Assembly (NCBI GenBank): GCA_964540095.1
Contig: CAZILH010000001.1
Coordinates: 2,552-66,551, forward strand
Origin: an uncultured Gammaproteobacteria bacterium
GTDB lineage: Bacteria > Patescibacteriota > Patescibacteriia > UBA1558 > GWA2-36-10
Length of the DNA: 64,000 nucleotides
Reading direction: 5' to 3'
Positions within the stretch are counted from its first letter, which is position 1. Each line of letters opens with the position of its first letter. A program made the translations under genes and the position numbers. Positions 34 through 21,540 of the stretch are shown here, one piece after another. The notes beneath the pieces were generated by a model, which saw only the letters and a program-made list of their open reading frames with translations, was not told the origin of the DNA and ran no database searches.

Positions 34-477
34 GTGGCCATGATCGTCAAGAAAGACATTACCGTGATTTTCATCGGCTTGAATGAGACCTTGGTCCTGG
101 AGAGAATTTTGGCAGACCTCATCTTCTTTCTCTGCCAAAACAGGTTCAAAAACCTTGCGGATCGTCTCGGGTTAGAGAAGGGGGTTTCCCTACACTTCTC
201 AGAAGTCGGACCGCGCGGTAGATTCTGCATTGAGCTGCGCGTAGCTGAGACTGATCAGAGCTTCACGACCATTTCCTTTGACCTGTTCAAAGGCGTGAAA
301 CCAAACTTCATCCTGGAGTATCTAACCAGCAGACTTTCACAACTGGTGTCTGTTCAGGGCTACTACATGATCAGAAGTGACGTGCAATTCAGGGAAACGA
401 CAGAGCAAGACACTGCCTTCACTCCTCGTCCCAATGGCGACGCCTGGATATTGATCAGAATCACCAAGAATACTTGA
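34..477 (+). CDS. hypothetical protein (moderately GC-rich cassette, AGGAGG RBS upstream)
   Basis: Complete ORF preceded by aggagg; GC higher than flanking AT-rich DNA; no recognisable motif; followed by hairpin terminator at ~513-540. Confidence 0.3.
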   Translation: MAMIVKKDITVIFIGLNETLVLERILADLIFFLCQNRFKNLADRLGLEKGVSLHFSEVGPRGRFCIELRVAETDQSFTTISFDLFKGVKPNFILEYLTSRLSQLVSVQGYYMIRSDVQFRETTEQDTAFTPRPNGDAWILIRITKNT

Positions 478-512
478 TCAGACCAAGTGAATTCTCTGAA
501 AAAAACCCAAAA

Positions 513-540
513 GGGAGCGACCCTCGTCGCTCCCTTTTTC
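513..540. terminator. bidirectional intrinsic terminator (gggagcgac / gtcgctccc stem, T-runs on both sides)
   Basis: 9-bp perfect stem flanked by A-run upstream and T-run downstream; sits between convergent ORF 34-477 (+) and trmD (-). Confidence 0.6.
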
Positions 541-542
541 AT

Positions 543-1244
543 TTATCTAAATTTTTTTTGTTTCTCCCGCCACTCCTTAATCAATTTATGATTACCAGAA
601 AGCAAAACTTTCGGTACTTTCAAATTCATAAATTTATCTGGTCTAGTATATTGTGGGTATTCAACATTAAATTTTTTTGCCTGCTTATCATAGACCCCAA
701 AAGATTCATCAGCCACTGATTCTTCTTTGCCTACCACTCCTTTGACCAGACGAGAGACGCTGTCAACTACACAAGCCGCAGCCAGCTCTCCGCCAGTCAA
801 AACAAAATTGCCTAAAGAAATTTTTTCATCAATAAACTTATCAATGCGCGCATCAATTGCCTCATAGTGCCCAGCAATCAAAATCAGGCGATCATATTTG
901 ACTAATTGTTTTACTTTATTTTGATCCAAAGTATTGCCACGCGGTGTCAATAAAATAATCCTAGTTGTCTTGCTTTTGATCTTGCATATTTTTTTCAAAG
1001 TTTTGACAACCGGTTCGATTTTTATGACCATACCTGGTCCACCGCCATAGGGGGTGTCATCAACTGTTTTCCTTTTATCAGTCGCGGCTTGACGGATATC
1101 ATGAGTACGAATATCAATTAACTTTTTATCGCGCGCTCTTTTTAAAATTGAAGAATCAAAATAGCTATCTAAAATATTGGGAAAAATTGTCAGGATATCA
1201 AATTTCACCCGGTTAGAAATCATTTTTTGTTTATCTTTTTTCAT
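543..1244 (-). CDS. trmD: tRNA (guanine37-N1)-methyltransferase
   Basis: DILTIFP...YGGGPGMV motifs typical of TrmD/SPOUT; about 233 aa; lies downstream of rpsP and the KH-domain protein, as in the canonical operon. Confidence 0.9.
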   Translation of the reverse strand: MKKDKQKMISNRVKFDILTIFPNILDSYFDSSILKRARDKKLIDIRTHDIRQAATDKRKTVDDTPYGGGPGMVIKIEPVVKTLKKICKIKSKTTRIILLTPRGNTLDQNKVKQLVKYDRLILIAGHYEAIDARIDKFIDEKISLGNFVLTGGELAAACVVDSVSRLVKGVVGKEESVADESFGVYDKQAKKFNVEYPQYTRPDKFMNLKVPKVLLSGNHKLIKEWREKQKKFR

Positions 1245-6874: not shown

Positions 6875-6905
6875 ATCCAGCCTCTCGCGAGAGGCTGGAT
6901 TATTT
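6875..6905. terminator. palindromic bidirectional terminator (ATCCAGCCTCTCGCGAGAGGCTGGAT)
   Basis: 26-bp perfect palindrome between convergent genes; shares CTCTCGCGAGAG core with terminator at 4335-4373. Confidence 0.55.
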
Positions 6906-9464
6906 AGCGGCTATTTCATCAGCTTGATCAAAACTCATGGAAAGCAGTTTTGAGACACCATCATCGCCCATGGTCACACCATAAATAATTTTGGCGTTAT
7001 GCATGGTGGCTCGATTGTGCGTGATGGCAATAAATTGAGTTTTATTGGAAATTTCTTGCAGTATCTGACTAAAACGAACTGAGTTGGCTTCATCCAAAGC
7101 AGCATCAACCTCGTCTAAGAATACAAACGGCGAGGGATTGTTGGAAATAATAGCGCAAATCAGAGCAATAGAGGTCAGCGCTTTTTCTCCGCCAGACAGC
7201 ATGCTGATACCCGACAATCTTTTACCTGGAGGCGTGGCTTTGATCTCAATACCATATTGTTTTTGAATTTTCTTTTCTGGAATTTCGCCATCAACACCTT
7301 CGACTTCCTCACCATTGCTGATAATATTTTCTTTAATATCCAAAATCAATTCAGCTTTGCCACCAGCAAACAATTTTTTGAAATAAGAATCAAATAGTTT
7401 GTTGATATTGTGAAAGGCCTGATCAAATTGTTTGGATATTGACTCATCTAGATCTTTGATTATTTTTTCTAAGTGCGCTATGGCCTCATTCAGATCGTCG
7501 CTCTGTGTTTTCAAGAATTGATAGCGTTCATTGACTTGGCTATATTCTTCCATGACAGCCGGATCAATGCCACCAATTATTTGTAATTGATTTTTTAAAC
7601 TAGCGATTTGAACCCGACTGGCCTCAGTATCAATCTGCCCCACTTTCTTGACCTGAAAGTCGGCCATTTCCTCGCCAATTTCTCGATTCAAATCTTCTTG
7701 CTTGGTCTCCAGACGAGCCAAAACAACTTTAATTTCATTTAACTTGCTATTTTTAGTATTAAACTCCTGCTGTATTTCGCGAAAATCTTTTTGGGACTGT
7801 ACCAAGCTGCTTTTCTTTTTTTCCTCTTGCTCATTGAAAGCGCGCACTTCTTTTTCAATGCTGGCAATTTTTTTATTCTGCGAATCAATTTTGGCTAGCA
7901 GAATTTCTAGTTGATCTTTCAAGCCCTTATTGTCCTGCTTATTTTCAGCTAGATTTTTACGCTCATTCTCTAACTTTATTAACTCTTGTTTGTCTTTGTT
8001 TAATTGTTGATTGATCAAAGCAATTTCTTGATCGGCCATGGCCAATCTAGTCTTGGCCTCATTGACCTCGGCCACCATATTATCCTTGGTCAGTAATAAT
8101 TGATTGAATTTTTCCGTCCAATCTTGATTGGTGTTTTTGGCTGGCCGAGAAAAATAATTTTTCACTTCCCACAAACTAGCGGTTATTTGCTGACACAATT
8201 TTTTCAATGACTCCAATTTGTCTAGAGCATCAATGTTTTCCAAAGCGCGTTCAAAATCTTGCTGTTTATCCAACAGCGCCGTCACCTTGTGGCTTATTTT
8301 TTCATTTGACCACTCATCATTGTTGTTCTTGACTTCGTCTTCTAATTTTTTAAAATCGGCTAAGATAACTTTTTGCTTGTTTTCTAAATCCAAAACCTGC
8401 TCTTGGGTTTGTTTTTGGCGGTGCTGTTTTTCCTCTAGGTGCAAATTTTGCAAATTAACTTCATTGGCTAGTGTATCTAATCTTTTTTTCAGCCAAACTA
8501 TATCTACCTGGCCAGTAGAAATCAATTGCACATCCATCTGCCCCTCAATAATGGCTTTTTCTTTGAGCGAACTATTGAGCTCATCCTGCGCTTGGCTCAG
8601 GCGATTTTGCAGATGATCAAAACTATCTTGACGACTGCGCCCTTTTTCTTCTTTTTCCAAACTAGTTTGCAAATCAACTAATTTTTGATTCAAATTTGAA
8701 ACTTCTTTGACTGAGGTCTGATACTGATCTTTATGACTAGACAATTCGCTGTTCAATTGATTGCTCAAAAAACTATAATAATCAGTTTGTAAATTATTCA
8801 AATCCCTAATTAATTGTTCTCTTTTTTCCAACCTTTTTACTTGCCGAGTCAAGCTACGCAAGTGTGGCTCCAATTCATTCAAAATCTGGCTGGTCTGACC
8901 TAGATTATTTTTGGCGCCTTCTAGCTTATTAATGGCTTGCTCTTTTTTGATCTGAAATTGACGAACGCCAGTGGCTTCATCAAAAAATTCTTTGCGCTCA
9001 GCCGATGATGAGGTCAGGATAGAGTCAATCATTCCCTGGCCAATGACGCTATAAGTCTTCTGGCCAAAATTGGCCTTGGCCAAGAGTAATTGCACATCCA
9101 TCAAGCGCACTCGGCTGTTATTAATCAAATACTCGCTCTCACCATTGCGATCAATTTTGCGAGTAATAATAATTTGCTCAAAATCTACATCAGCCAGATG
9201 GTCTTGATTGTTGAGATACAAACTAACTTGCGCAAAGCCCAAGCGCCCTTTTTTATCAGAGCCAGCAAAAATTACATCTTCTGATTTTTTGCCACGCAAA
9301 GTTTTGGAGCTTTGCTCGCCCAAGACCCAGCGGACAGCGTCAGCAATGTTTGACTTGCCTGAGCCATTTGGTCCGACTATGGCTGTCAATTCACGATTAA
9401 AAAAAAGCTCTGTGCTGTTGGCAAAAGATTTGAACCCCTGAATTTCTAGTTTTTCCAAATACAT
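6900..9464 (-). CDS. smc: chromosome segregation protein SMC (short form)
   Basis: N-terminal Walker A GPNGSGKSN, long coiled coils, C-terminal LSGGEKALTSIALICAI signature and Walker B FLDEVDAALD; start at MYLEKLEIQGFKSF. Confidence 0.9.
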   Translation of the reverse strand: MYLEKLEIQGFKSFANSTELFFNRELTAIVGPNGSGKSNIADAVRWVLGEQSSKTLRGKKSEDVIFAGSDKKGRLGFAQVSLYLNNQDHLADVDFEQIIITRKIDRNGESEYLINNSRVRLMDVQLLLAKANFGQKTYSVIGQGMIDSILTSSSAERKEFFDEATGVRQFQIKKEQAINKLEGAKNNLGQTSQILNELEPHLRSLTRQVKRLEKREQLIRDLNNLQTDYYSFLSNQLNSELSSHKDQYQTSVKEVSNLNQKLVDLQTSLEKEEKGRSRQDSFDHLQNRLSQAQDELNSSLKEKAIIEGQMDVQLISTGQVDIVWLKKRLDTLANEVNLQNLHLEEKQHRQKQTQEQVLDLENKQKVILADFKKLEDEVKNNNDEWSNEKISHKVTALLDKQQDFERALENIDALDKLESLKKLCQQITASLWEVKNYFSRPAKNTNQDWTEKFNQLLLTKDNMVAEVNEAKTRLAMADQEIALINQQLNKDKQELIKLENERKNLAENKQDNKGLKDQLEILLAKIDSQNKKIASIEKEVRAFNEQEEKKKSSLVQSQKDFREIQQEFNTKNSKLNEIKVVLARLETKQEDLNREIGEEMADFQVKKVGQIDTEASRVQIASLKNQLQIIGGIDPAVMEEYSQVNERYQFLKTQSDDLNEAIAHLEKIIKDLDESISKQFDQAFHNINKLFDSYFKKLFAGGKAELILDIKENIISNGEEVEGVDGEIPEKKIQKQYGIEIKATPPGKRLSGISMLSGGEKALTSIALICAIISNNPSPFVFLDEVDAALDEANSVRFSQILQEISNKTQFIAITHNRATMHNAKIIYGVTMGDDGVSKLLSMSFDQADEIAAK

Positions 9465-9521
9465 AAATAAAAAAATAACAACTGTTAGCGTTATTATTTT
9501 AACATAATTTATACTTTTAAT

Positions 9522-9730
9522 AAATATAAAGCCCCCGTCGACAAGTTGTTGTGTCTTGGATGAGACGGGGGCAAAGAATGAACGGGCGCCACAGCTATGA
9601 GTGGTCACTAGCCCTATCATGGGCTAGAGCTCCAGACACAGGGTCCGCGGCTACGGCTGAAGGACTCGCCTCAATTTCAACGAGTTCCACTCGTTACCTC
9701 TGTGGCGCCCGAAACGAAAACGAACAACGA
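9522..9730 (-). ncRNA. putative structured small RNA B (about 200 nt, GC-rich); identity unresolved
   Basis: Minus-strand TTGACA-17-TATCAT promoter (RC of ~9737-9765); 11-bp long-range stem gggcgccacag/ctgtggcgccc enclosing several hairpins; ends in 9-bp stem-loop gcccccgtc...gacgggggc plus T-run; no convincing ORF. Confidence 0.3.
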
Positions 9731-9782
9731 ATACAGATGATAGCAAACTAACCAGTAAATGTCAATGCCAGCCAAATACTTT

Positions 9783-10050
9783 AATAAAAAAATTAACCCT
9801 CCCATAGCCGTAGCTTTTGGGAGGGTTGAGGTAGTGGGTCGCCGCATCAATCGAAGAGGCATCGCTGTGGTTTAGCAGTTTTGAACACCGCAAGTGCATC
9901 TTGTCTCTACAGGAGGAAACGCTCTTGGTCTTGGCACGAAACTGTCCCGCCGGATCCCAGACTTCGATCTCGATCTAGACCGTGTGACCACAGCGATGAA
10001 GGCCTTTCCTCTTTGCTCGCGACGACCCCACAAAGGTGGCATGAGCGAAC
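9783..10050 (-). ncRNA. putative structured small RNA A (about 265 nt, GC-rich rod-like fold); SRP-RNA/6S-like candidates, identity unresolved
   Basis: Perfect minus-strand TTGACA-17-TATAAT promoter (RC of ~10057-10085); 12-bp perfect long-range pairing catcgctgtggt/accacagcgatg nested in outer stem gggtcgtcgc/gcggcgaccc; apical UCC-GGCG-GGA resembles SRP domain IV UCC-GGAA-GGA; terminator aaccctccc...gggagggtt plus T-run. Confidence 0.3.
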
Positions 10051-10109
10051 ACAATAATTATATTATGCCTTAATTTTTTTGTCAAAGTTTATTTATTAAA
10101 AAAAGGGAT

Positions 10110-10802
10110 TTACCATCCCTTTACTTTCAGGGCCTTAGTAGCGGCCGCTGTCTGGGCCTCTTGCTTGCTATAGCCCTCACCATCAGCCACCAATTCTTTA
10201 TCTAAGTATACACCGATAATAAATTTTTTATTATGATCTGGCCCTGATTCTGACAACACCCGATAACGCGGGGTGACATTGTTTATCTCTTGGGCTTTTT
10301 CTTGAAAGCGACTTTTGGCGTCAATATATGTTTGCGAAGCAATGATGTCTGGCAAAGTCACTAGTATATTTTTTTTAATAAACTTATCAACTACGCGAAA
10401 TCCTTGATCAAGGTAGATGGCTCCCAATAGAGCTTCCATGGCATTGGCCAAGATATAACCGCGGGCTTTTTTGTTGGTGTCTTGGGACTCACCCTTACTC
10501 AAATACAAAAAACCATAAACACCCAGCTTCTCCGCAATCGTGGCTAGGTGCGTAGCATTGACTAAAGCTGAACGCCAGTTAGTCAGAGTTCCTTCATTCT
10601 CCTGATAATTGTGATACAAATAATCAGTGACCGACAGTTCCAAAACCGCGTCACCCAAAAACTCCAAACGCTCATTTTGCTCTATTGGAAAATCTTTATG
10701 TTCATTCAAATAAGAGCGATGCACCAAAGCGTTTTTCAAAATATCCGTATCCTTAAATTTCACTTCCAGCTTGTCTTCCAATAAAGAAATATTTTTTTGC
10801 AT
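10110..10802 (-). CDS. rnc: ribonuclease III
   Basis: ERLEFLGDAVLELSV RNase III signature; C-terminal dsRBD. Confidence 0.9.
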   Translation of the reverse strand: MQKNISLLEDKLEVKFKDTDILKNALVHRSYLNEHKDFPIEQNERLEFLGDAVLELSVTDYLYHNYQENEGTLTNWRSALVNATHLATIAEKLGVYGFLYLSKGESQDTNKKARGYILANAMEALLGAIYLDQGFRVVDKFIKKNILVTLPDIIASQTYIDAKSRFQEKAQEINNVTPRYRVLSESGPDHNKKFIIGVYLDKELVADGEGYSKQEAQTAAATKALKVKGW

Positions 10803-10803
10803 A

Positions 10804-11667
10804 CTATTCCAAATTTAACTTTTGCCAAGCCATGTTAAAAATATCCTTGGCATTGTCATAGCCCAAAACATCCAAAACCTCGTGCCTAGGGTACCACTTT
10901 ACATCCAGCAATTCAGAAACTTTTGGCACTATGATTTCCTTGTCTTTGGTCTCGACCAAAAAATATTTTATTAGTTTGCGGTAGGGCTTCACCTCTGGCT
11001 TATGTACCTTGACTTGGGTCTCACCCAGATAATCTTTGACTACTAGATTTTTCAAGCCGGTCTCTTCAAACAACTCTCGAGCTACGGCCTTTTCCAAGCT
11101 TTCACCTTCATTGACGTGACCTTTGGGGAAAGTCCACTTACCATAAGCATCCAGCAACAATACAAAATAATAACCATCTTCTTCCTGACGATAAATCACA
11201 CCGCCGGCTGACACTTCTTTGATACCCTGACTGACTAAGGTCTGTTTTTCACCTTTACTAATCATTTCTTTGTAGATGCTACCCAAAACGCCATTAACAA
11301 ATTTGCCGCTAGCATCACCGCCAAAAGCTTTGGCTAGCTCTATGGCTTCATTGATGGCTACTTTTGGTGGTATGTCATGATCCATCTTCAACTCACAAAT
11401 ACCAATGCGCAAAACATTACGGTCAATCAAAGTAATTTGGTCTATCGGCCACTCTGGGGCAAATTTACCAATCAACTTATCAATGGACTTCTGATTGGCT
11501 ACCACTTTTTCAATCAAATTCAAAGCAAAACCTTGATCGTCAAATTCCGGAGCAAATTCTTTTTGATTAAATTTCAAAATGTCACCAATATTTCCTTGGT
11601 GATTATTAAAATCCCACTCAAAGAGTGCTTGTAAAACAATAGTTCGAGCTAAATGACGATTAGCCAT
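10804..11667 (-). CDS. nusB: NusB antitermination factor fused to a C-terminal NUDIX hydrolase domain
   Basis: N-terminal half near-identical to NusB core ([32 protein letters not shown] versus E. coli [32 protein letters not shown]); C-terminal half carries Nudix box [23 protein letters not shown]. Confidence 0.85.
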   Translation of the reverse strand: [287 protein letters not shown]

Positions 11668-11670
11668 TGC

Positions 11671-11865
11671 TTATTTTTTGTTTACTTGGCTTTTGGTGGC
11701 TACTTTTTTTTCACCCTTATAGTAACCACATTTATTGCAAGCGCGGTGTGGCAATAATATTGCTCCGCAATTTTTACACTTGGTGGTACTGGCTTTTTTC
11801 AAAGCAAAATGCGACGCCCTGCGACGCGCTGAACTCTTGGTAAGTTTCTTTGTAGGTAAACCCAT
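11671..11865 (-). CDS. rpmF: 50S ribosomal protein L32
   Basis: Basic about 64-aa protein with C-x2-C...C-x2-C zinc ribbon (CKNCGA...CNKCGYY), typical L32. Confidence 0.85.
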   Translation of the reverse strand: MGLPTKKLTKSSARRRASHFALKKASTTKCKNCGAILLPHRACNKCGYYKGEKKVATKSQVNKK

Positions 11866-11962
11866 AATTTTTTTATTAGTTTCGTGATTTTAGCTAAATT
11901 TCCTATTTTGGTCAAGGAAGACCAAGTAAATCCCCGTCAATTATACCAAAGTTTAGGACTAT

Positions 11963-12195
11963 TGACAAACATAAAAAAACATGATATTATGACCCATCTA
12001 TTTAGAAAAGCACCTTAATTAGCGTTTTTAATATTTTTTCAGGCAACTGTGTCCACGACAAGCATGGGAATCATTTTTTTCGTCTAATTTGGCTACGGCT
12101 GAATTATTTCAAAAAATGGTTTTCTTGGACACAGCTGCTTGGAAAAATAATCTATCGTGGCCATATAAAAAAACGTCCCGCACTGCGGGACGTTT
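11963..12195 (+). ncRNA. orphan promoter-to-terminator unit (about 200 nt), candidate sRNA
   Basis: TTGACA-17-TATTAT promoter at 11963-11991; 13-bp long-range inverted repeat gcaactgtgtcca/tggacacagctgc; terminator aaaaaacgtcccgcactgcgggacgttttttt; only tiny ORFs (7 and 18 aa). Confidence 0.3.
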
Positions 12196-12197
12196 TT

Positions 12198-14075
12198 TTA
12201 TTGACTTGGTGTTGTACTAGGAGTGGTGGTGGCCGTACCTCCACTAGCTTCAGCAGCAATTTCTTCGGCCGTAGCACCCACCAGGCAAACTGCCTGCCAA
12301 GGCACATAGTGACTAGAAAAAGTGACTTTGACTGGTTCTGGTTTGTTTAAATATTGAACAATATAATCAAACTTAGCATCAGCTCCGGCGTGGGCACTCT
12401 CCGTACACTTAGTTTGGCCTACTGGTAAATTGGTGGTTTTTACAATTTTTTTCGGCGCTGGAGAAACTACATTATAGATTATCGGCTTGGTGGTAGTAGC
12501 CACGCGACCATCTGCTGTCCCCCAAAAATCAAAATATAATTTTGTGCCCTCTATTCTGGTTTGAATCAAAATATAATTACCAGTGTCATTCAAAAATTTT
12601 AAATCTGGCTTAGGGTCATAAATCGTGGCATCCATGCCAGCGGGCTCATAATAAACCACCCGATAAGAATGATTGCGTCTTTCGGTGATTGGCAGACCAG
12701 TACTCAGAGCCGCTCGAAAAACAGTGGTGCCGATCTGACACAAACCCCCGCCATACTCTGGTATTGTTTTGCTGCCCTTGATCACCAACTCCTGCTTGTA
12801 GCCATGCTCACCATCAATGTCGCCCAAGGCCGTAATCAAAGAAAACTCTTCGTCAACATTGATAAGCAAACCATTGAGCGTGTCCGCCCCAACTCCTATA
12901 TTGTGTATGCGATTGGGGGGACTGCCCTTGAAATCCGATTCGCCAGTACCCAAAAGCGTGCCAATACCCAAATCATTGGCGTCGCTATTCATTATTTTTG
13001 GTTTGACTGTTTCTACAACAATATCAAAATTATTTTTATTAGAACCCAATATCTTTTCGGCATTAGCTATTGTCTTGGTCCAATCAATCATCTTGCCTTC
13101 TTGGCTAGCCATAAATTCCGAAACCTTGCCGTTGTTTAATTTGAACTTGGCATCCTGAACCAAAACTTCAATATCTGAACTTAAGCCCTGATCATCAAAA
13201 TATTTTTTTGCTTTTTCAATGTCAAAACCTAAATACGGTTTATTTTTATTAAATTTAATTTGTAGCCACTGTCGCCAATCAGCATTAGCAATAGTTGTTG
13301 CCTGCTCATTATAATGAGCTACCAAATCTCCTTGCTGAGTGGTGTTGATAATTTGACTACGAAACTTATCTATTACCGCGCTAGTGACTATGGGTTTGTC
13401 CTCGACCACTACTAAATTAATTTCTCCTGTCTGCAATTTTTTTATTTGCTCCTCAGTGTCTGACATGGCCTGCTCATAGGTAAATGTCTGGCCAATAATC
13501 TCTGGATTTATCTTCAAGCCACCGGCTGATTCAAACTCAAAACTAGCTTCTTTTTTGCTAGGCAACAAACCCTTGAAATCTTCCTCCAAAATACTGCGAT
13601 GACGCTCCTTATCCCAAGTATAATCAAGCGACCAAGTTTTGCCTCCCAGCATTACGCTAATTTTATTCAACAAATTAGCGGGCCGCTCATCTTTTTGAAA
13701 TTTTAAAATTTTATCCAAACTTTTTTCCATCTGCCACATGACCAAAGGAAAAGAGCTGTCAGCCGAACCAGCGCTAATAATAGGATAAATGGTGGACTTT
13801 TTGCCTTGTCCCATATAGACGAAGCCATCGCGACTAAAAGTGTCCAAATGCTCTTGGGTTTTCTTTTTGGCCTGCTCATAGGTCAGCCCGCCAATATTAA
13901 CACTGCCAAGTTTTGTTCCTGGCAAAAAAACATTGGCATACTTGTAGTTGACAGTGGCATTAGCCACAAAAACAGCTACCAATAAAAAACAAAAAACCGC
14001 TGCTACAATCAGAATTATTTTTAGCGGCCAATGCTTGTGCTTTTCTTCTGCAACAATTTTATCCTTCAGTGTCAT
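12198..14075 (-). CDS. VanW-family protein with N-terminal TM anchor
   Basis: EYGGGLCQIGTTVFRAAL matches the VanW domain GGGxCQxSTT motif; single N-terminal TM. Confidence 0.7.
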   Translation of the reverse strand: MTLKDKIVAEEKHKHWPLKIILIVAAVFCFLLVAVFVANATVNYKYANVFLPGTKLGSVNIGGLTYEQAKKKTQEHLDTFSRDGFVYMGQGKKSTIYPIISAGSADSSFPLVMWQMEKSLDKILKFQKDERPANLLNKISVMLGGKTWSLDYTWDKERHRSILEEDFKGLLPSKKEASFEFESAGGLKINPEIIGQTFTYEQAMSDTEEQIKKLQTGEINLVVVEDKPIVTSAVIDKFRSQIINTTQQGDLVAHYNEQATTIANADWRQWLQIKFNKNKPYLGFDIEKAKKYFDDQGLSSDIEVLVQDAKFKLNNGKVSEFMASQEGKMIDWTKTIANAEKILGSNKNNFDIVVETVKPKIMNSDANDLGIGTLLGTGESDFKGSPPNRIHNIGVGADTLNGLLINVDEEFSLITALGDIDGEHGYKQELVIKGSKTIPEYGGGLCQIGTTVFRAALSTGLPITERRNHSYRVVYYEPAGMDATIYDPKPDLKFLNDTGNYILIQTRIEGTKLYFDFWGTADGRVATTTKPIIYNVVSPAPKKIVKTTNLPVGQTKCTESAHAGADAKFDYIVQYLNKPEPVKVTFSSHYVPWQAVCLVGATAEEIAAEASGGTATTTPSTTPSQ

Positions 14076-19035: not shown

Positions 19036-21540
19036 TTATTTTTTCTTTTTTAGCTTAGTAGTCAACACATAAAAAATACTTATTACTAAAAATCCCAGCA
19101 AGACAAATTTTAATATTTTTTTGGCTTGTGAGGATCCCTGATTGGCTTCCACCGTACTAGTGCTATTAGTGCTTGTTGAAATTTTTTCGCCCAAAACTTT
19201 TTGCTCCATTTGTAAATCACTTTTATCAAAAACATCCAGACGCACTACTTTTTCATCAAACTGCAATAAGCCACTAGCAATCACTTCAGTGCCTTTGTCT
19301 AGCTTTAAATCCTTGGTGTCAAACTTAAGACTCAGGCGCAAATTATATTCTTGATCAACATCATCAGCTAAATAAATATTTTTGCCATTTTTTTTGACCA
19401 CTACTCCGCGCGCAATCACTAATTGCCCGTTATGTTCTTCATTGAGATCTGTGCTGTCTATAATCTCTGGCTTAACTATTTCCTGGTCACCTTCTAAAAT
19501 ACTTATTTCCTGATCACTGGCAATTTTTACTCTGGGCCAGGGATCAACTCTGGTAATTTTGCCAGATAAATAAATTGCGTCGCCTCTTTTATACTTGGCA
19601 AAATCTAAAGCACCGTAGACCTCAACTAAACGATTTTCATAATCTAACAAATATAATATTTTATTATTCTGGCCCCAAACCGTGGCTGTAATATTTCTAT
19701 TTTCTCCTTTTTTATATTCCAAGTTTTCACTAGCCGCCTGGAGAGTGTTCGCAATGTTTGCTTGCTCCGGACTTGGGCTTTCACTAACAAACCATTCGTT
19801 ATTGGCTAAGTCCCAAGCATAGGACTGACCCTCGGGGATTTTTTCATATTTTACTTCTTGCCAAACTTCATTCAATGGTGTAAGTAGGCGTACGCTGTCT
19901 ATGGTGTTGTTCAAAGTAATTTGACTGGTATTTCTATCAATCACCAAAAAACTGCCAGCTGAAATAATCGTGCTAGTGGCAAAAACATACGACTTACTGC
20001 CACCCTCCTCATCGTCTAATTGCCAGCCAAGTAAATCAATGTTTTTGGCGCTGACGTTGTATAGTTCTATCCACTCACCATCATCATTGCCAACTGGATT
20101 GGGCAACAATTCGGTGATTAACAAATCTTCTGTTCTAAAATCTATGGACTTAACATCGGCTAACTTCAAGTCAACTGCTTTATTTTCCACAACAATATTT
20201 TTGGTGACTTCATTGCTTAGTCCAGTAGAATCAGTGACTTTTAATTTAACCAAATAATTACCCGCTTTTTCGTAGACGTGATTTTCTTTGGCCTCATCGC
20301 CATTTTGATTATCGCCAAAATCCCAAAAATACTTTAACTCCCCTTCTTCAGGATCGGTGGATTCAGCACCTGAAAAAATTATTTTTGTATTAGCAAAAAA
20401 TTTATCACCTTCGATTTTTAGCACAGCTTGCGGCGCTTGATTCTCTGGCAAGACATTGGCCTGGCCAGGTGTAGGACTTGGCGTCCAAGCCAATGACCCA
20501 TTTATCAAGGCCCAGCTCTTGCCCTCTGGCGCCGAAGCATCATAAACAGCGCTATCTAATATATTGTTGTCTGGCGAATAAACTTTCACACTATCACCGC
20601 CAGTGTTATTCAAAGATATTTTTGTTTGATTTTTGTAGAGTACCAAATACGAGTTGCCAGCCAAAAGCAAACCCTGCCCAATAGTATATTGTCCGGCCGA
20701 ATTGTCCTGCACCTTGAAGCCAGACAGATCAACTGTGTTTTGTCCTTGATTAAATAATTCTATCCATTCAGCGTCGTCACTGCCCACTGGATTGGGCAAC
20801 AACTCTGATATTTTTATTTGTGACCAATAATTAGTCGGCACTCTGGTGCCACTACTAACCGGCGCTTCGGGAGCTGGCGTCTCCGGCTCCTCATCAGCCG
20901 GTGGATCGTCACCATCGCCACCATCATCTGGCGGTAAAGGTGGTAGGTCTGTGCCTTGACTTTTCACTGCGCCCGGAGTGCCACCCAAGACAAAGCTCTC
21001 TTGCCAGTTACTCACTGCACTTTCTTGCGTCAAATTTATTTTTTCTAGTGTTTTGCCATTGCCACTTGCGCCCCAAGTAGAATCATAAATAGCGCTGATA
21101 CTTTGAGTTTGACCGCCATCAAAACTCAAAGCAATGGTACTGCTAGAATTACCCAAGCTCATGACTGTGTCAAAAACCGCTAAGGCAAATCCCGGATGCT
21201 CAGTCAAAAAATTCTGCGCATCAGAGGCAATGATAAAATATTCGCTCACGGCAATAGTACTGGTGCCATTGACCAAATTCAAAATATGATTTGAGCCATC
21301 AAAAAAACGCCAAGTATCAGCACCCGACCCAGTTAAAACTTCTACGGCTTCTGAGCCACCATTGTAGACCTCAATCCACTCACGACCACTATCTGATCCA
21401 TCCAAATCGTACATGATTTCAGAAATCACCAAGTCGCTACTCCCTGCTTGAATGGTCTGCGGACAAAGCAAAACAAATATTAAAATAACAAGCGCCCAAA
21501 GGGCGACCGCCCTTTGGGCGGAAATCGCTTTTCTTTTCAT
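19036..21540 (-). CDS. large surface protein with three lamin-tail domains (LTD), a PKD-like domain and C-terminal TM anchor
   Basis: Signal peptide; three repeats of the LTD signature (ISEIMY..GSD..EWIELYN); YFWDFGDNQNGDEAKENHVYEKAGNYLVKLKVTD PKD-like motif; C-terminal hydrophobic helix plus KKKK. Confidence 0.75.
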   Translation of the reverse strand: MKRKAISAQRAVALWALVILIFVLLCPQTIQAGSSDLVISEIMYDLDGSDSGREWIEVYNGGSEAVEVLTGSGADTWRFFDGSNHILNLVNGTSTIAVSEYFIIASDAQNFLTEHPGFALAVFDTVMSLGNSSSTIALSFDGGQTQSISAIYDSTWGASGNGKTLEKINLTQESAVSNWQESFVLGGTPGAVKSQGTDLPPLPPDDGGDGDDPPADEEPETPAPEAPVSSGTRVPTNYWSQIKISELLPNPVGSDDAEWIELFNQGQNTVDLSGFKVQDNSAGQYTIGQGLLLAGNSYLVLYKNQTKISLNNTGGDSVKVYSPDNNILDSAVYDASAPEGKSWALINGSLAWTPSPTPGQANVLPENQAPQAVLKIEGDKFFANTKIIFSGAESTDPEEGELKYFWDFGDNQNGDEAKENHVYEKAGNYLVKLKVTDSTGLSNEVTKNIVVENKAVDLKLADVKSIDFRTEDLLITELLPNPVGNDDGEWIELYNVSAKNIDLLGWQLDDEEGGSKSYVFATSTIISAGSFLVIDRNTSQITLNNTIDSVRLLTPLNEVWQEVKYEKIPEGQSYAWDLANNEWFVSESPSPEQANIANTLQAASENLEYKKGENRNITATVWGQNNKILYLLDYENRLVEVYGALDFAKYKRGDAIYLSGKITRVDPWPRVKIASDQEISILEGDQEIVKPEIIDSTDLNEEHNGQLVIARGVVVKKNGKNIYLADDVDQEYNLRLSLKFDTKDLKLDKGTEVIASGLLQFDEKVVRLDVFDKSDLQMEQKVLGEKISTSTNSTSTVEANQGSSQAKKILKFVLLGFLVISIFYVLTTKLKKKK

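Follow-up and report, generated by a model that had tools for sequence, protein, structure and literature searches.

Why does the gene for NusB, a factor of rRNA antitermination, continue without a stop codon into a complete Nudix hydrolase domain, and what might the attached domain do there? The question is raised by an open reading frame (ORF) in a 64,000-nucleotide stretch of Patescibacteria DNA, which we refer to as the window. To our knowledge, nearly all work on NusB and the rRNA antitermination complex concerns E. coli, in which we know of no subunit that acts on RNA 5' ends. Our literature search found no paper describing a NusB-Nudix fusion, and the databases name such proteins 'NusB' only, or 'ADP-ribose pyrophosphatase' in the case of fragments. 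The fusion therefore exposes a gap in annotation. The features of the locus are given below.

10804..11667, minus strand: nusB::nudix fusion ORF, 287 aa plus stop, ATG start, uninterrupted
11254..11667, minus strand: NusB domain, residues 1-138, all-helical (Pfam and TIGR01951 scores above cut-offs)
11215..11253, minus strand: inter-domain linker, residues 139-151, conserved in the window's clade
10807..11214, minus strand: Nudix domain, residues 152-287, aq_158/Ndx1-type alpha/beta/alpha fold (Pfam and fold matches)
11053..11121, minus strand: canonical Nudix box, residues 183-205 (G183-L205), an exact fit to GX5EX7REUXEEXGU
11671..11865, minus strand: rpmF, ribosomal protein L32, 64 aa (ORF; Pfam Ribosomal_L32p, E 2.6e-16)
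10110..10802, minus strand: rnc, RNase III with dsRBD, 230 aa (Pfam Ribonucleas_3_3, E 1.7e-38; dsrm, E 4.7e-15)
11968 to 11940, minus strand: promoter-like TTGTCA-17-TATAAT with extended -10 TG (consensus scan, 11/12 matches; pattern only)
11915 to 11887, minus strand: promoter-like TTGACC-17-TAAAAT (consensus scan, 10/12 matches; pattern only)
10102..10122, minus strand: terminator-like hairpin with T-run over the rnc stop (consensus scan; pattern only)

The first-pass annotation of this DNA had the coordinates and the ORF right and left the strand, which is minus, unstated. It also described a tight rpmF-nusB/nudix-rnc operon, and this description holds: the three genes share one strand, with 3 nt between rpmF and the fusion ORF and 1 nt between the fusion stop and the rnc start codon. 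Both promoter-like sites are located upstream of rpmF, within 11887..11968 (minus strand). It is likely that rpmF is the first gene of a three-gene unit and that the hairpin at the rnc stop is its 3' end, and rnc is probably translationally coupled to the fusion ORF. The 64-kb window contains no second NusB and no second Nudix protein, nor does it hold an rRNA operon, an rRNA leader or a boxA. Rfam and ARAGORN searches of the rnc-smc gap returned nothing.

Gene order helps to identify the protein. In most related loci rpmF lies upstream of nusB, and in nearly all of them rnc lies downstream. The NusB-only loci (n=25) have the order rpmF-nusB-rnc as well, and the fusion loci share that position. 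Since Patescibacteria keep this order whether or not the Nudix module is present, the fusion protein is taken to be the housekeeping NusB. In model bacteria, nusB is found in ribH-nusB or similar contexts, whereas the fusion lies between rpmF and rnc. Other bacteria have an rpmF-plsX-fab-acpP-rnc-smc cluster, of which the rpmF...rnc-smc adjacency seen here may partly be a historical remnant, and this possibility weakens the inference from synteny.

The assignment of the N-terminal half, read earlier as about 140 residues of NusB, was borne out for residues 1-138. Pfam NusB (PF01029) matches residues 7-133 (E 7e-34, 117.5 bits against a cut-off of 23.1), and the NCBIfam nusB equivalog TIGR01951 scores 133.4 bits (cut-off 88.35). 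The matching PDB sequences are the NusB proteins of T. maritima, Aquifex and E. coli (E 4e-21 to 5e-17). An AF2 model has pLDDT >90 across most of residues 1-137, and Foldseek aligns this half with NusB from the NusB-NusE-BoxA complex (3r2c, TM 0.90, rmsd 1.6 A) and with 1tzv (TM 0.85). The near-identity to E. coli NusB that had been reported is likewise present in the conserved segments, with the KVAINE...KFVNGVL core identical in the two proteins. R4, R8 and Q13 align with E. coli R6, R10 and Q15, and the positions of this N-terminal Arg motif and of Q13 are 87-94% conserved among 54 diverse fusions. By family score, fold, core and Arg motif the N-terminal half is thus a canonical NusB; the difference is that NusB of E. 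coli, Aquifex aeolicus and Thermotoga maritima is a single domain of ~140 aa, whereas a 136-residue Nudix domain is added here.

A NusB-like fold joined to an enzyme has a precedent in RsmB/Sun, the 16S rRNA m5C967 methyltransferase. There, a NusB-like N-terminal domain, helical and RNA-binding, precedes an enzymatic domain that modifies rRNA, and the architectural plan is alike. RsmB, however, combines a SAM methyltransferase with a NusB paralogue, whereas the fusion combines a Nudix domain with the NusB orthologue itself, and the NusB half of the fusion matches the RsmB models weakly.

The C-terminal half had been described as a complete Nudix domain with a canonical box, and we agree: Pfam NUDIX (PF00293) matches residues 152-266 (E 1e-19, 71.3 bits against a cut-off of 21.1), and the box at nt 11053-11121 fits the motif exactly. 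The top PDB sequence match is Aquifex aq_158 (3i7u; E 7e-15 over the whole domain, 32% identity, query 11-142 against chain 3-126), followed by Thermus Ndx1 and then CT771. Foldseek also places 3i7u first (TM 0.89, rmsd 2.0 A), with Thermus Ndx1 at TM 0.88; many other solved Nudix enzymes, and NrtR, are among the fold matches too. The alignment maps R197, E198, E201 and E202 onto R46, E47, E50 and E51 of aq_158. Among the best-conserved residues of the Nudix half is a Lys that coincides with the phosphate-binding lysine of the 'PKG' motif in related Nudix enzymes. From its intact box, the window protein is predicted to have Mg2+-dependent pyrophosphohydrolase activity.

With aq_158 and Thermus thermophilus Ndx1 (an Ap6A hydrolase) the fusion shares the signature SAGG...W(T/S)FPKG...REUXEE and the essential glutamate, E51 in aq_158. 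These two proteins differ from it in being stand-alone, at 126-134 aa, and their identity to the module is modest. A further difference lies at aq_158 Y67, which is replaced by valine (V219) in the window protein and its clade; among 54 diverse fusions, 80% have Tyr at this aligned position. In ApnA hydrolases, a Tyr of the X-loop downstream of the box contacts the adenine of ApnA (PMC5389931). From the alignment, aq_158 Y67 would be this marker, and by the same mapping the adenine-contact Tyr is absent from the window's clade.

RNA 5'-pyrophosphatases of better-known bacteria are more distant. RppH and YtkD/BsRppH convert 5'-triphosphate or Np4-capped RNA to 5'-monophosphate RNA (PMC8833179, PMC7044304), a chemistry like the one we propose for the fusion, but they are not its orthologues. 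The NCBIfam RppH models (PRK00714) give 25-33 bits on the fusion against cut-offs of 116-259, the YtkD model TIGR02705 gives 26 bits against 154, and E. coli RppH structures align with the fusion at the Nudix box alone.

The fusion is one genuine, conserved ORF, and each half is a full-length member of its family that folds well. The best 120 matching clusters listed, drawn from NCBI, JGI, ENA and Logan, all consist of two-domain proteins of 285-303 aa with 55-92% identity. In the two-domain sequences that we examined, comprising the window and 55 further loci, both domains are encoded by a single ORF (56/56). Additionally, NCBI and Logan assemblies both contain exactly this fusion protein, under the plain name NusB. 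The search for the same fusion in related genomes, which had been proposed earlier, thus found it. The worry about a frameshift merge, raised at the same time, can be set aside, as frame and length are the same in independent projects. That a sequencing or assembly error joined two neighbouring genes was a possibility a priori, with nothing further in its favor, and we now regard its probability as negligible: frame and length agree among the 120 listed clusters and the 55 two-domain loci, the exact protein recurs in NCBI and Logan assemblies, and the seeming stand-alone fragments are truncations at contig ends.

Three such candidates (P0121-P0123), the best hits of a Nudix-only database search, had appeared to be stand-alone Nudix genes upstream of rnc. 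We rejected them as fusions truncated at contig ends and left them out of the counts. In locus L001, for example, the ORF at 115..717 still encodes the NusB C-terminus, and the others come from contigs of 0.8-1.2 kb. The Nudix-only search itself was also left out of the counts, as its 123 candidates do not include the full-length fusions.

The fusion is widespread. Clustering at 50% identity leaves at least 54 separate groups of it among the Patescibacteria, which are ultra-small bacteria, so the first-pass description of it as unusual is correct in comparison with model bacteria and does not apply within Patescibacteria, where it is common. It had also been stated that close relatives with the same operon and no fusion would refute the reading. 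The same operon without a Nudix domain, rpmF-nusB-rnc, does exist, but only in more distant Buchananbacteria- and Kerfeldbacteria-like lineages, whereas the close relatives (group A, 51-95% identity) keep the fusion in 14/14 cases. Some relatives carry C-terminal extensions on NusB that show no detectable Nudix signature. A split nusB|nudix arrangement was found in none of 80 loci.

Divergence within the family is considerable. The most divergent fusions share 51-59% identity with the window protein in NusB and 24-39% in the Nudix half. In pairwise BLAST comparisons, the Nudix modules of clade A, to which the window protein belongs, and clade B score 60-100 bits, no higher than against stand-alone Nudix proteins. 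A neighbor-joining tree of the NusB domain, midpoint-rooted and drawn without support values, places clade A inside NusB-only lineages and clade B apart. This pattern suggests that the fusion was gained at least twice, or that it is old and has been lost several times since an early ancestor.

The state of the catalytic box differs between these lineages. It is canonical and invariant in all 15 members of the window's clade (15/15). In the other fusion lineages it is canonical in 13/41 sequences of one set and 9/54 of another, leaving 28/41 and 45/54 non-canonical; in the Campbellbacteria genome CP011215, an example of a pseudo-enzyme, the box reads GSGLEGEDPEKCTARVVKKEMGV. W178, K182, Y235, W258 and Y270 are retained in most other fusion lineages despite the loss of the catalytic glutamates. 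The dN/dS ratio is 0.02-0.11 in pairs with estimable dS and 0.03-0.07 for degenerate Nudix modules, indicating strong purifying selection, and these values are to be read with many pairs saturated (dS >1 or undefined) and dS of ~1 or less only in WIN/L004, L027/L030 and L028/L029. Since most fusion lineages have no intact box, hydrolysis is not the family-wide function. The function that they have in common is probably binding, given that the box residues were lost outside the window's clade and the modules nevertheless remain under purifying selection. At one end of the family stands a presumably active enzyme and at the other a pseudo-enzyme, with purifying selection throughout, a natural series in which to follow how a Nudix fold turns into a binding module.

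What would be bound is the point on which several explanations part. One is that the module is a ligand sensor: a free nucleotide signal, whether Np4N, an alarmone or a metabolite derived from NAD, would bind to it and allosterically tune NusB/boxA/NusE binding, so that rRNA antitermination follows the metabolic state. The modules of the window's clade would, in addition, hydrolyse the ligand and thereby reset the signal. Mostly degenerate boxes under purifying selection, with the pocket-type residues W178, K182, Y235, W258 and Y270 kept, would suit such a role, as would the conserved linker of clade A. Non-enzymatic Nudix domains are moreover an established class (PMC5389931), and NrtR, which appears among the fold matches, is a precedent in which a Nudix-like domain, often catalytically degenerate, serves as effector sensor beside a nucleic-acid-binding domain (PMC2330246). 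It parallels the degenerate-box fusion lineages. NrtR, however, is a repressor of NAD genes with an N-terminal Nudix domain and a C-terminal winged-helix DNA binder, whereas the fusion has the reverse order, an RNA-binding partner and an intact box. The window protein, with its canonical box, accordingly falls outside the NrtR-like non-catalytic Nudix domains, which are recognized by a degenerate box in a retained fold; many of the other fusion lineages do fit that description. A pure sensor has no need of the perfect catalytic box found in the window's clade, the nearest homologues are enzymes rather than regulators, the sequence suggests no effector, and inter-domain contact is not confidently predicted. 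On balance we think the sensor explanation unlikely.

Another explanation dispenses with the ligand. The Nudix fold could be a protein or RNA scaffold that stabilizes NusB/NusE within the antitermination complex, with catalysis vestigial, in analogy to SuhB. This enzyme-fold protein joins NusB/E-boxA and is needed if NusB/E are to be stably integrated and RNase III is to process the RNA efficiently (PMC6614801; bioRxiv 10.64898/2026.03.17.712431). In the E. coli rrnTAC, SuhB is a separate dimer of the inositol-monophosphatase fold that sits on NusA-AR2, whereas here the Nudix domain is covalently attached to NusB. A structural subunit would account for boxes that are degenerate in most lineages while selection is still purifying, and the C-terminal extensions of some relatives, which have no Nudix signature, fit it as well. 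Yet NusB-only Patescibacteria with the same operon do without the module, the invariant catalytic residues of clade A indicate that activity is selected there, and the conserved lysine at the 'PKG' position looks like a ligand contact rather than a protein interface. A purely structural role therefore seems improbable to us.

The linker was compared in 33 members of the window's clade, in which E140, K141 and E151 never vary and G139 is kept in >=90%. In the other fusion clade, linkers are longer and Lys-rich. The AF2 model gives the linker a pLDDT of ~65 and the whole fusion a pTM of 0.57, a value at which domain orientation is not confidently predicted. Such a loosely fixed orientation would also be compatible with two domains that have little to do with each other. 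Genome reduction in Patescibacteria favors gene fusions, and an ordinary Ap4A or nucleotide-pyrophosphate hydrolase might have been fused to NusB by an intergenic deletion, with co-expression as the sole gain; stand-alone relatives of the module do exist in unrelated contexts, ctpB-nudix-HU/L9. The evidence on retention makes this explanation very unlikely. The fusion has been kept over very deep divergence, with no split arrangement among the 80 loci, and the NusB tree implies either at least two origins or persistence since an early ancestor. A housekeeping hydrolase without its catalytic residues would be expected to erode, yet dN/dS is as low as given above in the degenerate modules, and the linker of clade A is conserved.

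A clue to a ligand comes from aq_158 (PDB 3I7U/3I7V). Once called an Ap4A hydrolase, it has been renamed Omnivore RNA pyrophosphatase, as it was found in 2026 to remove ppp, pp, m7G, NAD, FAD, Np4 and sugar caps in vitro, leaving 5'-monophosphate RNA (PMC13145063). The E51A substitution abolishes its activity (PMC13145063), and E51 aligns with E202 of the fusion. RNA activity of ApnA hydrolases had been foreseen in a review of the Nudix clan (PMC5389931). The authors of the aq_158 study caution that the specificity of a Nudix protein is not predictable unless a close homologue has been characterized, and that the biological role of aq_158 itself is unknown (PMC13145063). The link to hydrolysis of RNA caps or 5' ends suggested in the first-pass annotation is now better supported, because the closest solved homologue is known to be an RNA 5' pyrophosphatase and decapping enzyme; hydrolysis as a property shared by the family does not stand, as most fused boxes are degenerate. 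The alarmone or (p)ppGpp role raised in the same annotation is speculative.

Our best reading is that the module tethered to NusB recognizes either a nucleotide or the 5' end of RNA, and that in the window's clade it is, as predicted from its box, catalytic. In full, the mechanism would run as follows. NusB and S10/NusE would bind boxA in the nascent pre-rRNA leader, and NusB would travel with RNA polymerase within the antitermination complex. The linker of ~13 residues would hold the Nudix active site close to the 5' portion of the growing transcript, where the module would recognize the 5'-terminal oligophosphate, be it a triphosphate or an Np4/NAD-type cap. In the window's clade, hydrolysis of the 5' oligophosphate would then leave a 5'-monophosphate, the product of aq_158 in vitro. 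Antitermination would thereby be coupled to 5'-end maturation and leader turnover, while the co-transcribed RNase III would cleave the leader-trailer helix alongside. In most other fusion lineages, the module would probably only bind the same ligand, without catalysis. We hold this complete mechanism, with a tethered Nudix domain that acts on the 5' end of nascent pre-rRNA here and merely binds it elsewhere, tentatively and with a little less than even confidence. Against it stand the identity to aq_158 of merely 32%, the RppH models far under their cut-offs, the replacement of the adenine-contact Tyr by Val219 in the clade, the broken box of most fusion lineages, and the inter-domain geometry, which is not confidently predicted (pTM 0.57).

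A stronger version, which we find possible but doubtful, makes the Nudix module an integral subunit of rRNA antitermination that grips the pre-rRNA 5' triphosphate or cap and takes the part of a lock played by SuhB. The module would hydrolyse the triphosphate or cap in the window's clade and merely grip it in the pseudo-enzyme clades, and it would physically tie antitermination to the retention of the 5' end and to processing by RNase III. If this were true, in vivo evidence would for the first time point to 'Ap4A hydrolases' of the aq_158 type as RNA 5'-end enzymes. Eukaryotic mRNA decapping offers a loose parallel in Dcp2, which places a helical N-terminal regulatory domain before a catalytic Nudix domain that acts on RNA 5' ends. 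It is an analogy only: the helical domains are unrelated, and the two-domain fold match is loose (rmsd 11-15 A, TM ~0.34).

The fusion places a NusB with a domain of the RNA-5'-pyrophosphatase type beside RNase III, an arrangement conserved over much of the candidate phyla radiation. It hints at a link between rRNA transcription and RNA-end processing that has so far not been described, and it yields a concrete, testable hypothesis, a coupling of 5'-end chemistry with antitermination and with the processing of rRNA. It also provides 'Rosetta-stone' evidence on the biological role of 'Ap4A hydrolases' of the aq_158/Ndx1 class.

A minor observation concerns the stand-alone proteins nearest to the module. 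Their genes overlap the upstream ctpB by 25-60 nt, which makes their start sites uncertain, and as called they have basic N-terminal tails with 6-11 K/R in 18-29 residues. Such tails might be a faint sign of RNA binding.

The fusion gene, at 10804-11667 on the minus strand, is one ORF of 287 aa with an ATG start. Pfam finds NusB at residues 7-133 (E 7e-34) and NUDIX at residues 152-266 (E 1e-19), both far over their gathering scores, and the NusB half scores 133 bits against the NCBI equivalog TIGR01951 (cut-off 88). The first-pass annotation had described NusB and Nudix as sharing an uninterrupted reading frame in a tight operon with rpmF and rnc, and this is what we find. Its claim of a canonical Nudix box also holds, residues 183-205 (nt 11053-11121) matching GX5EX7REUXEEXGU exactly, as does that of near-identity to E. 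coli NusB: KFVNGVL and a 12-residue stretch are identical. The features of the operon are as follows.

11968->11940: promoter-like site before rpmF, 11/12 consensus matches, extended -10
Ending 3 nt upstream of the fusion ORF: rpmF (L32), from Pfam
10804-11667, minus strand: nusB::nudix fusion ORF
Starting 1 nt downstream of the fusion ORF: rnc (RNase III with dsRBD), from Pfam
10122->10102: terminator-like hairpin overlapping the rnc stop

Given the 3-nt and 1-nt spacers, the promoter-like site and the terminator-like hairpin, rpmF-nusB::nudix-rnc looks like a compact three-gene unit, probably with translational coupling. The remaining genes of the window, including trmD, rpsP, khpA, smc, rpoB and rpoC, and its 41% GC fit a Patescibacteria chromosome. 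Other bacteria have an rpmF-plsX-fab-acpP-rnc-smc cluster, and the arrangement rpmF...rnc-smc may in part be what is left of it. Immediately upstream of the operon (12198-14075, minus strand) lies a gene for a 625-aa protein with VanW and PG_binding_4 domains, and at 19036-21540 one whose 834-aa product has lamin-tail and PKD domains; both are large surface proteins typical of Patescibacteria, unrelated to the fusion.

Searched against 5.8 billion protein clusters, the window protein gave at least 120 matches, from Patescibacteria, Komeilibacteria, Parcubacteria and Nomurabacteria; those listed are 285-303 aa long and 55-92% identical, and all have both Pfam domains. An identical protein is already public and, like the listed matches that carry a name, is called only ‘transcription antitermination factor NusB’. 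The same two-domain ORF recurs across NCBI, JGI, ENA and Logan assemblies, which makes it next to inconceivable that a frameshift or assembly error created the fusion. An exhaustive search by HMM through 1.84 billion representatives at 50% identity gave 304 matches at E <= 1e-30, the best 150 of which include at least 54 near-complete two-domain representatives. Six proteins from this search (P0269, P0273 and P0281, 338-345 aa; P0249, P0276 and P0325, 251-268 aa) are NusBs extended at the C-terminus by 100-200 residues for which Pfam has no matching family. In P0269 and P0281 the match to the fusion profile is partial and runs as far as position 223-228; such extensions may be remnants of Nudix too diverged to recognise, or other modules attached at the same site.

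To compare loci, one genome per GTDB species was scanned, the best 80 of 584 relatives were kept, and L32, NusB, Nudix and RNase III were mapped onto them. Re-reading the ORFs gave three groups. Group A (14 loci and the window, 51-95% identity, Komeilibacteria-like) carries the fusion as a single ORF of 286-303 aa, in which the linker is short and conserved. Group B (41 loci, overall identity about 37-45%) takes in the complete Campbellbacteria genome CP011215, Nomura- and Taylorbacteria, Paceibacterota and Minisyncoccia; its fusion is again a single ORF, of 282-316 aa (263 aa in L026, cut by a contig end), with a longer, Lys-rich linker. The 25 loci of group C (Buchanan- and Kerfeldbacteria and others) encode NusB alone (139-176 aa) and have no Nudix within 4 kb; rnc follows in most, directly in all but two, and two loci are cut before rnc. 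Wherever present, the Nudix module lies in-frame, exactly between NusB and rnc, and no split nusB|nudix pair was seen among the best 80 of 584 relatives. Three apparent stand-alone Nudix genes (P0121-P0123) were rejected as contig-end fragments still encoding the NusB C-terminus. Some TPA assemblies bear MAG titles such as ‘uncultured Gammaproteobacteria’, which are unreliable, since those loci share sequence and synteny with Patescibacteria-labelled ones.

In a midpoint-rooted neighbor-joining tree of NusB domains, which carries no support values, group A falls as one clade inside the NusB-only group C, and group B forms a separate clade. The Nudix modules of A and B are no more similar to each other than to stand-alone Nudix proteins. 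Possible histories are two or more separate origins of the fusion at one site, or an ancient fusion with several losses; either implies selection for NusB-Nudix linkage. One fusion locus, L019 (1912-2289, 4001-4876), stands alone outside both clades; its Nudix module is nearer clade A than clade B, and a second, separate Nudix-like gene lies ~2 kb upstream.

The AlphaFold model of the window protein (mean pLDDT 90.5) superposes its NusB half on Aquifex NusB from the NusB-NusE-BoxA complex (TM 0.90, rmsd 1.6 A). R4 and R8 of the N-terminal Arg motif, and Q13, align with E. coli NusB R6, R10 and Q15 and are 87-94% conserved in 54 diverse fusions. Because of this fold, the Arg motif and the same rpmF-nusB-rnc slot as in group C, the fusion is predicted to carry the housekeeping NusB and not a paralogue; the 64-kb window holds no second NusB or second Nudix.

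The Nudix half aligns end-to-end with the Aquifex aeolicus enzyme aq_158 (PDB 3I7U; E 7e-15, 32% identity, TM 0.89, rmsd 2.0 A), followed by the Ap6A hydrolase Ndx1 of Thermus (TM 0.88) and CT771 of Chlamydia. RppH models match the box only, with scores far under their cut-offs. Long annotated as an Ap4A hydrolase, aq_158 was reported in 2026 to convert RNA bearing 5'-triphosphate, diphosphate, m7G, NAD, FAD, Np4 and sugar caps to 5'-monophosphate, whatever the 5' sequence or structure, and its E51A mutant is inactive (PMC13145063). By alignment, aq_158 R46/E47/E50/E51 correspond to window R197/E198/E201/E202. ApnA hydrolases contact adenine through an X-loop tyrosine (PMC5389931), which aligns with aq_158 Y67; the position is Val219 in group A, whereas it is Tyr in 80% of the 54 diverse fusions. 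The window module is of the aq_158 type, with its predicted catalytic residues intact in group A and under selection. The closest stand-alone relatives of the fused module (P0124 in L002/L003, P0128 in L084, P0134 in L085; 36-42% identity) have canonical boxes and Lys/Arg-rich N-terminal tails. Their genes always follow directly on a ctpB-like S41 peptidase gene, which they overlap, near HU or ribosomal protein genes; the pairing is conserved.

The box is canonical in 15/15 members of group A vs 13/41 of group B, where 26/41 have K, A, V or G in place of E198. Only 9/54 diverse representatives keep it: E198 is conserved in 22%, E201 in 54%, R197 in 56%, E189 in 63% and E202 in 72%, and among many boxes that read as plainly dead are SRIVKKEFG, VDILKRKINM and IQILNNKFAP. 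This is not an alignment artefact, since the flanking D.FG.WT.PKG motif aligns cleanly. The most conserved module positions are W178, K182, W258 and Y270 (93% each), Y235 (91%), G155 (89%) and T179 (85%). Nei-Gojobori dN/dS was read from three pairs, all others being saturated at synonymous sites.

dN/dS of the two domains in three pairs of fusion loci
L027/L030 (box GERAEE, dS 0.85): Nudix 0.068, NusB 0.038
L028/L029 (box GERVKE, dS 0.61): Nudix 0.028, NusB 0.056
Window/L004: Nudix 0.043, NusB 0.024

As their values resemble those of the NusB part and of the window/L004 pair, the degenerate modules are not decaying. The box pattern and low dN/dS together indicate that the Nudix fold is selected everywhere and catalysis in some clades only, the window's included. 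That the module is an unrelated housekeeping hydrolase merely co-expressed with NusB is improbable, because degenerate modules are kept under purifying selection and the best 80 loci show no split arrangement.

NusB and NusE bind the boxA of the pre-rRNA leader and move along with RNAP. The linker of ~13 residues would keep the Nudix pocket close to the 5' part of nascent RNA that carries boxA, where the module may recognise a 5' oligophosphate or cap. Np4 and other caps are added at initiation and taken off by Nudix enzymes (PMC7044304, PMC8833179), and the leader-trailer helix is essential (PMC10250234). We tentatively propose that the NusB-tethered module serves 5'-end recognition on boxA-bearing RNA: in the window's clade it would convert the oligophosphate or cap to a 5'-monophosphate, and in the pseudo-enzyme clades it would probably bind without converting. 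Against this proposal stand the 32% identity to aq_158, whose authors explicitly warn against predicting specificity from sequence (PMC13145063), the relative domain orientation, which AlphaFold does not predict (pTM 0.57), and the possibility that the gene neighbourhood partly reflects the older cluster. In E. coli, stable NusB/NusE integration requires the enzyme-fold protein SuhB (PMC6614801), and the Nudix half could be a built-in structural subunit of that kind, which we consider unlikely. We give about the same low weight to an NrtR-like ligand sensor (PMC2330246) that tunes antitermination.

The first-pass annotation had called the fusion unusual. It is not rare among relatives, as groups A and B and the diverse representatives attest. 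Full-text literature searches found no published description of a NusB-Nudix fusion and nothing relevant on NusB or Nudix in CPR/Patescibacteria; of 36 papers that name both NusB and Nudix, the 20 listed include none about a fusion. A review of the Nudix clan does not mention NusB (PMC5389931). Precomputed Pfam annotations show the architecture, though the proteins are named only NusB. Each part is known; new are the covalent coupling of the two, how widely it occurs, and the series from active enzyme to pseudo-enzyme.

The rnc-smc gap contains two candidate small RNA genes.

9783-10085, minus strand: candidate small RNA gene 1, with promoter match, structured body and hairpin
9497-9765, minus strand: candidate small RNA gene 2, directly downstream of gene 1
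6900-9620, minus strand: smc ORF as called mechanically, start at 9620

The first has a perfect sigma-70-type promoter match (TTGACA-17-TATAAT, 10085->10057). Its body, ~268 nt long and GC-rich, is closed by a long helix (MFE -105 kcal/mol, z = -4.6 vs shuffles); after it come a CCCUCCC...GGGAGGG hairpin and then a run rich in U (UUAAUUUUUUU). Neither a tmRNA nor any Rfam family, whether at gathering score or at E <= 1, was found in it, and the region is conserved (83%) in L004 only. The second has a promoter-like site (TTGACA-17-TATCAT, extended -10 TG, 9765->9737), a body of ~200 nt closed by GGGCGCCACAG/CUGUGGCGCCC (MFE -90 kcal/mol, z = -5.1) and a GCCCCCGUC...GACGGGGGC hairpin with a U-rich tail; it has no match in Rfam and is possibly a divergent 6S- or SRP-like RNA. 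In the listed smc ORF the conserved SMC N-terminus (MYLEKLEIQGFKSF) does not begin until ~53 codons in, near 9461, and the first ~160 nt of that ORF, which overlap the second candidate, are probably not coding.
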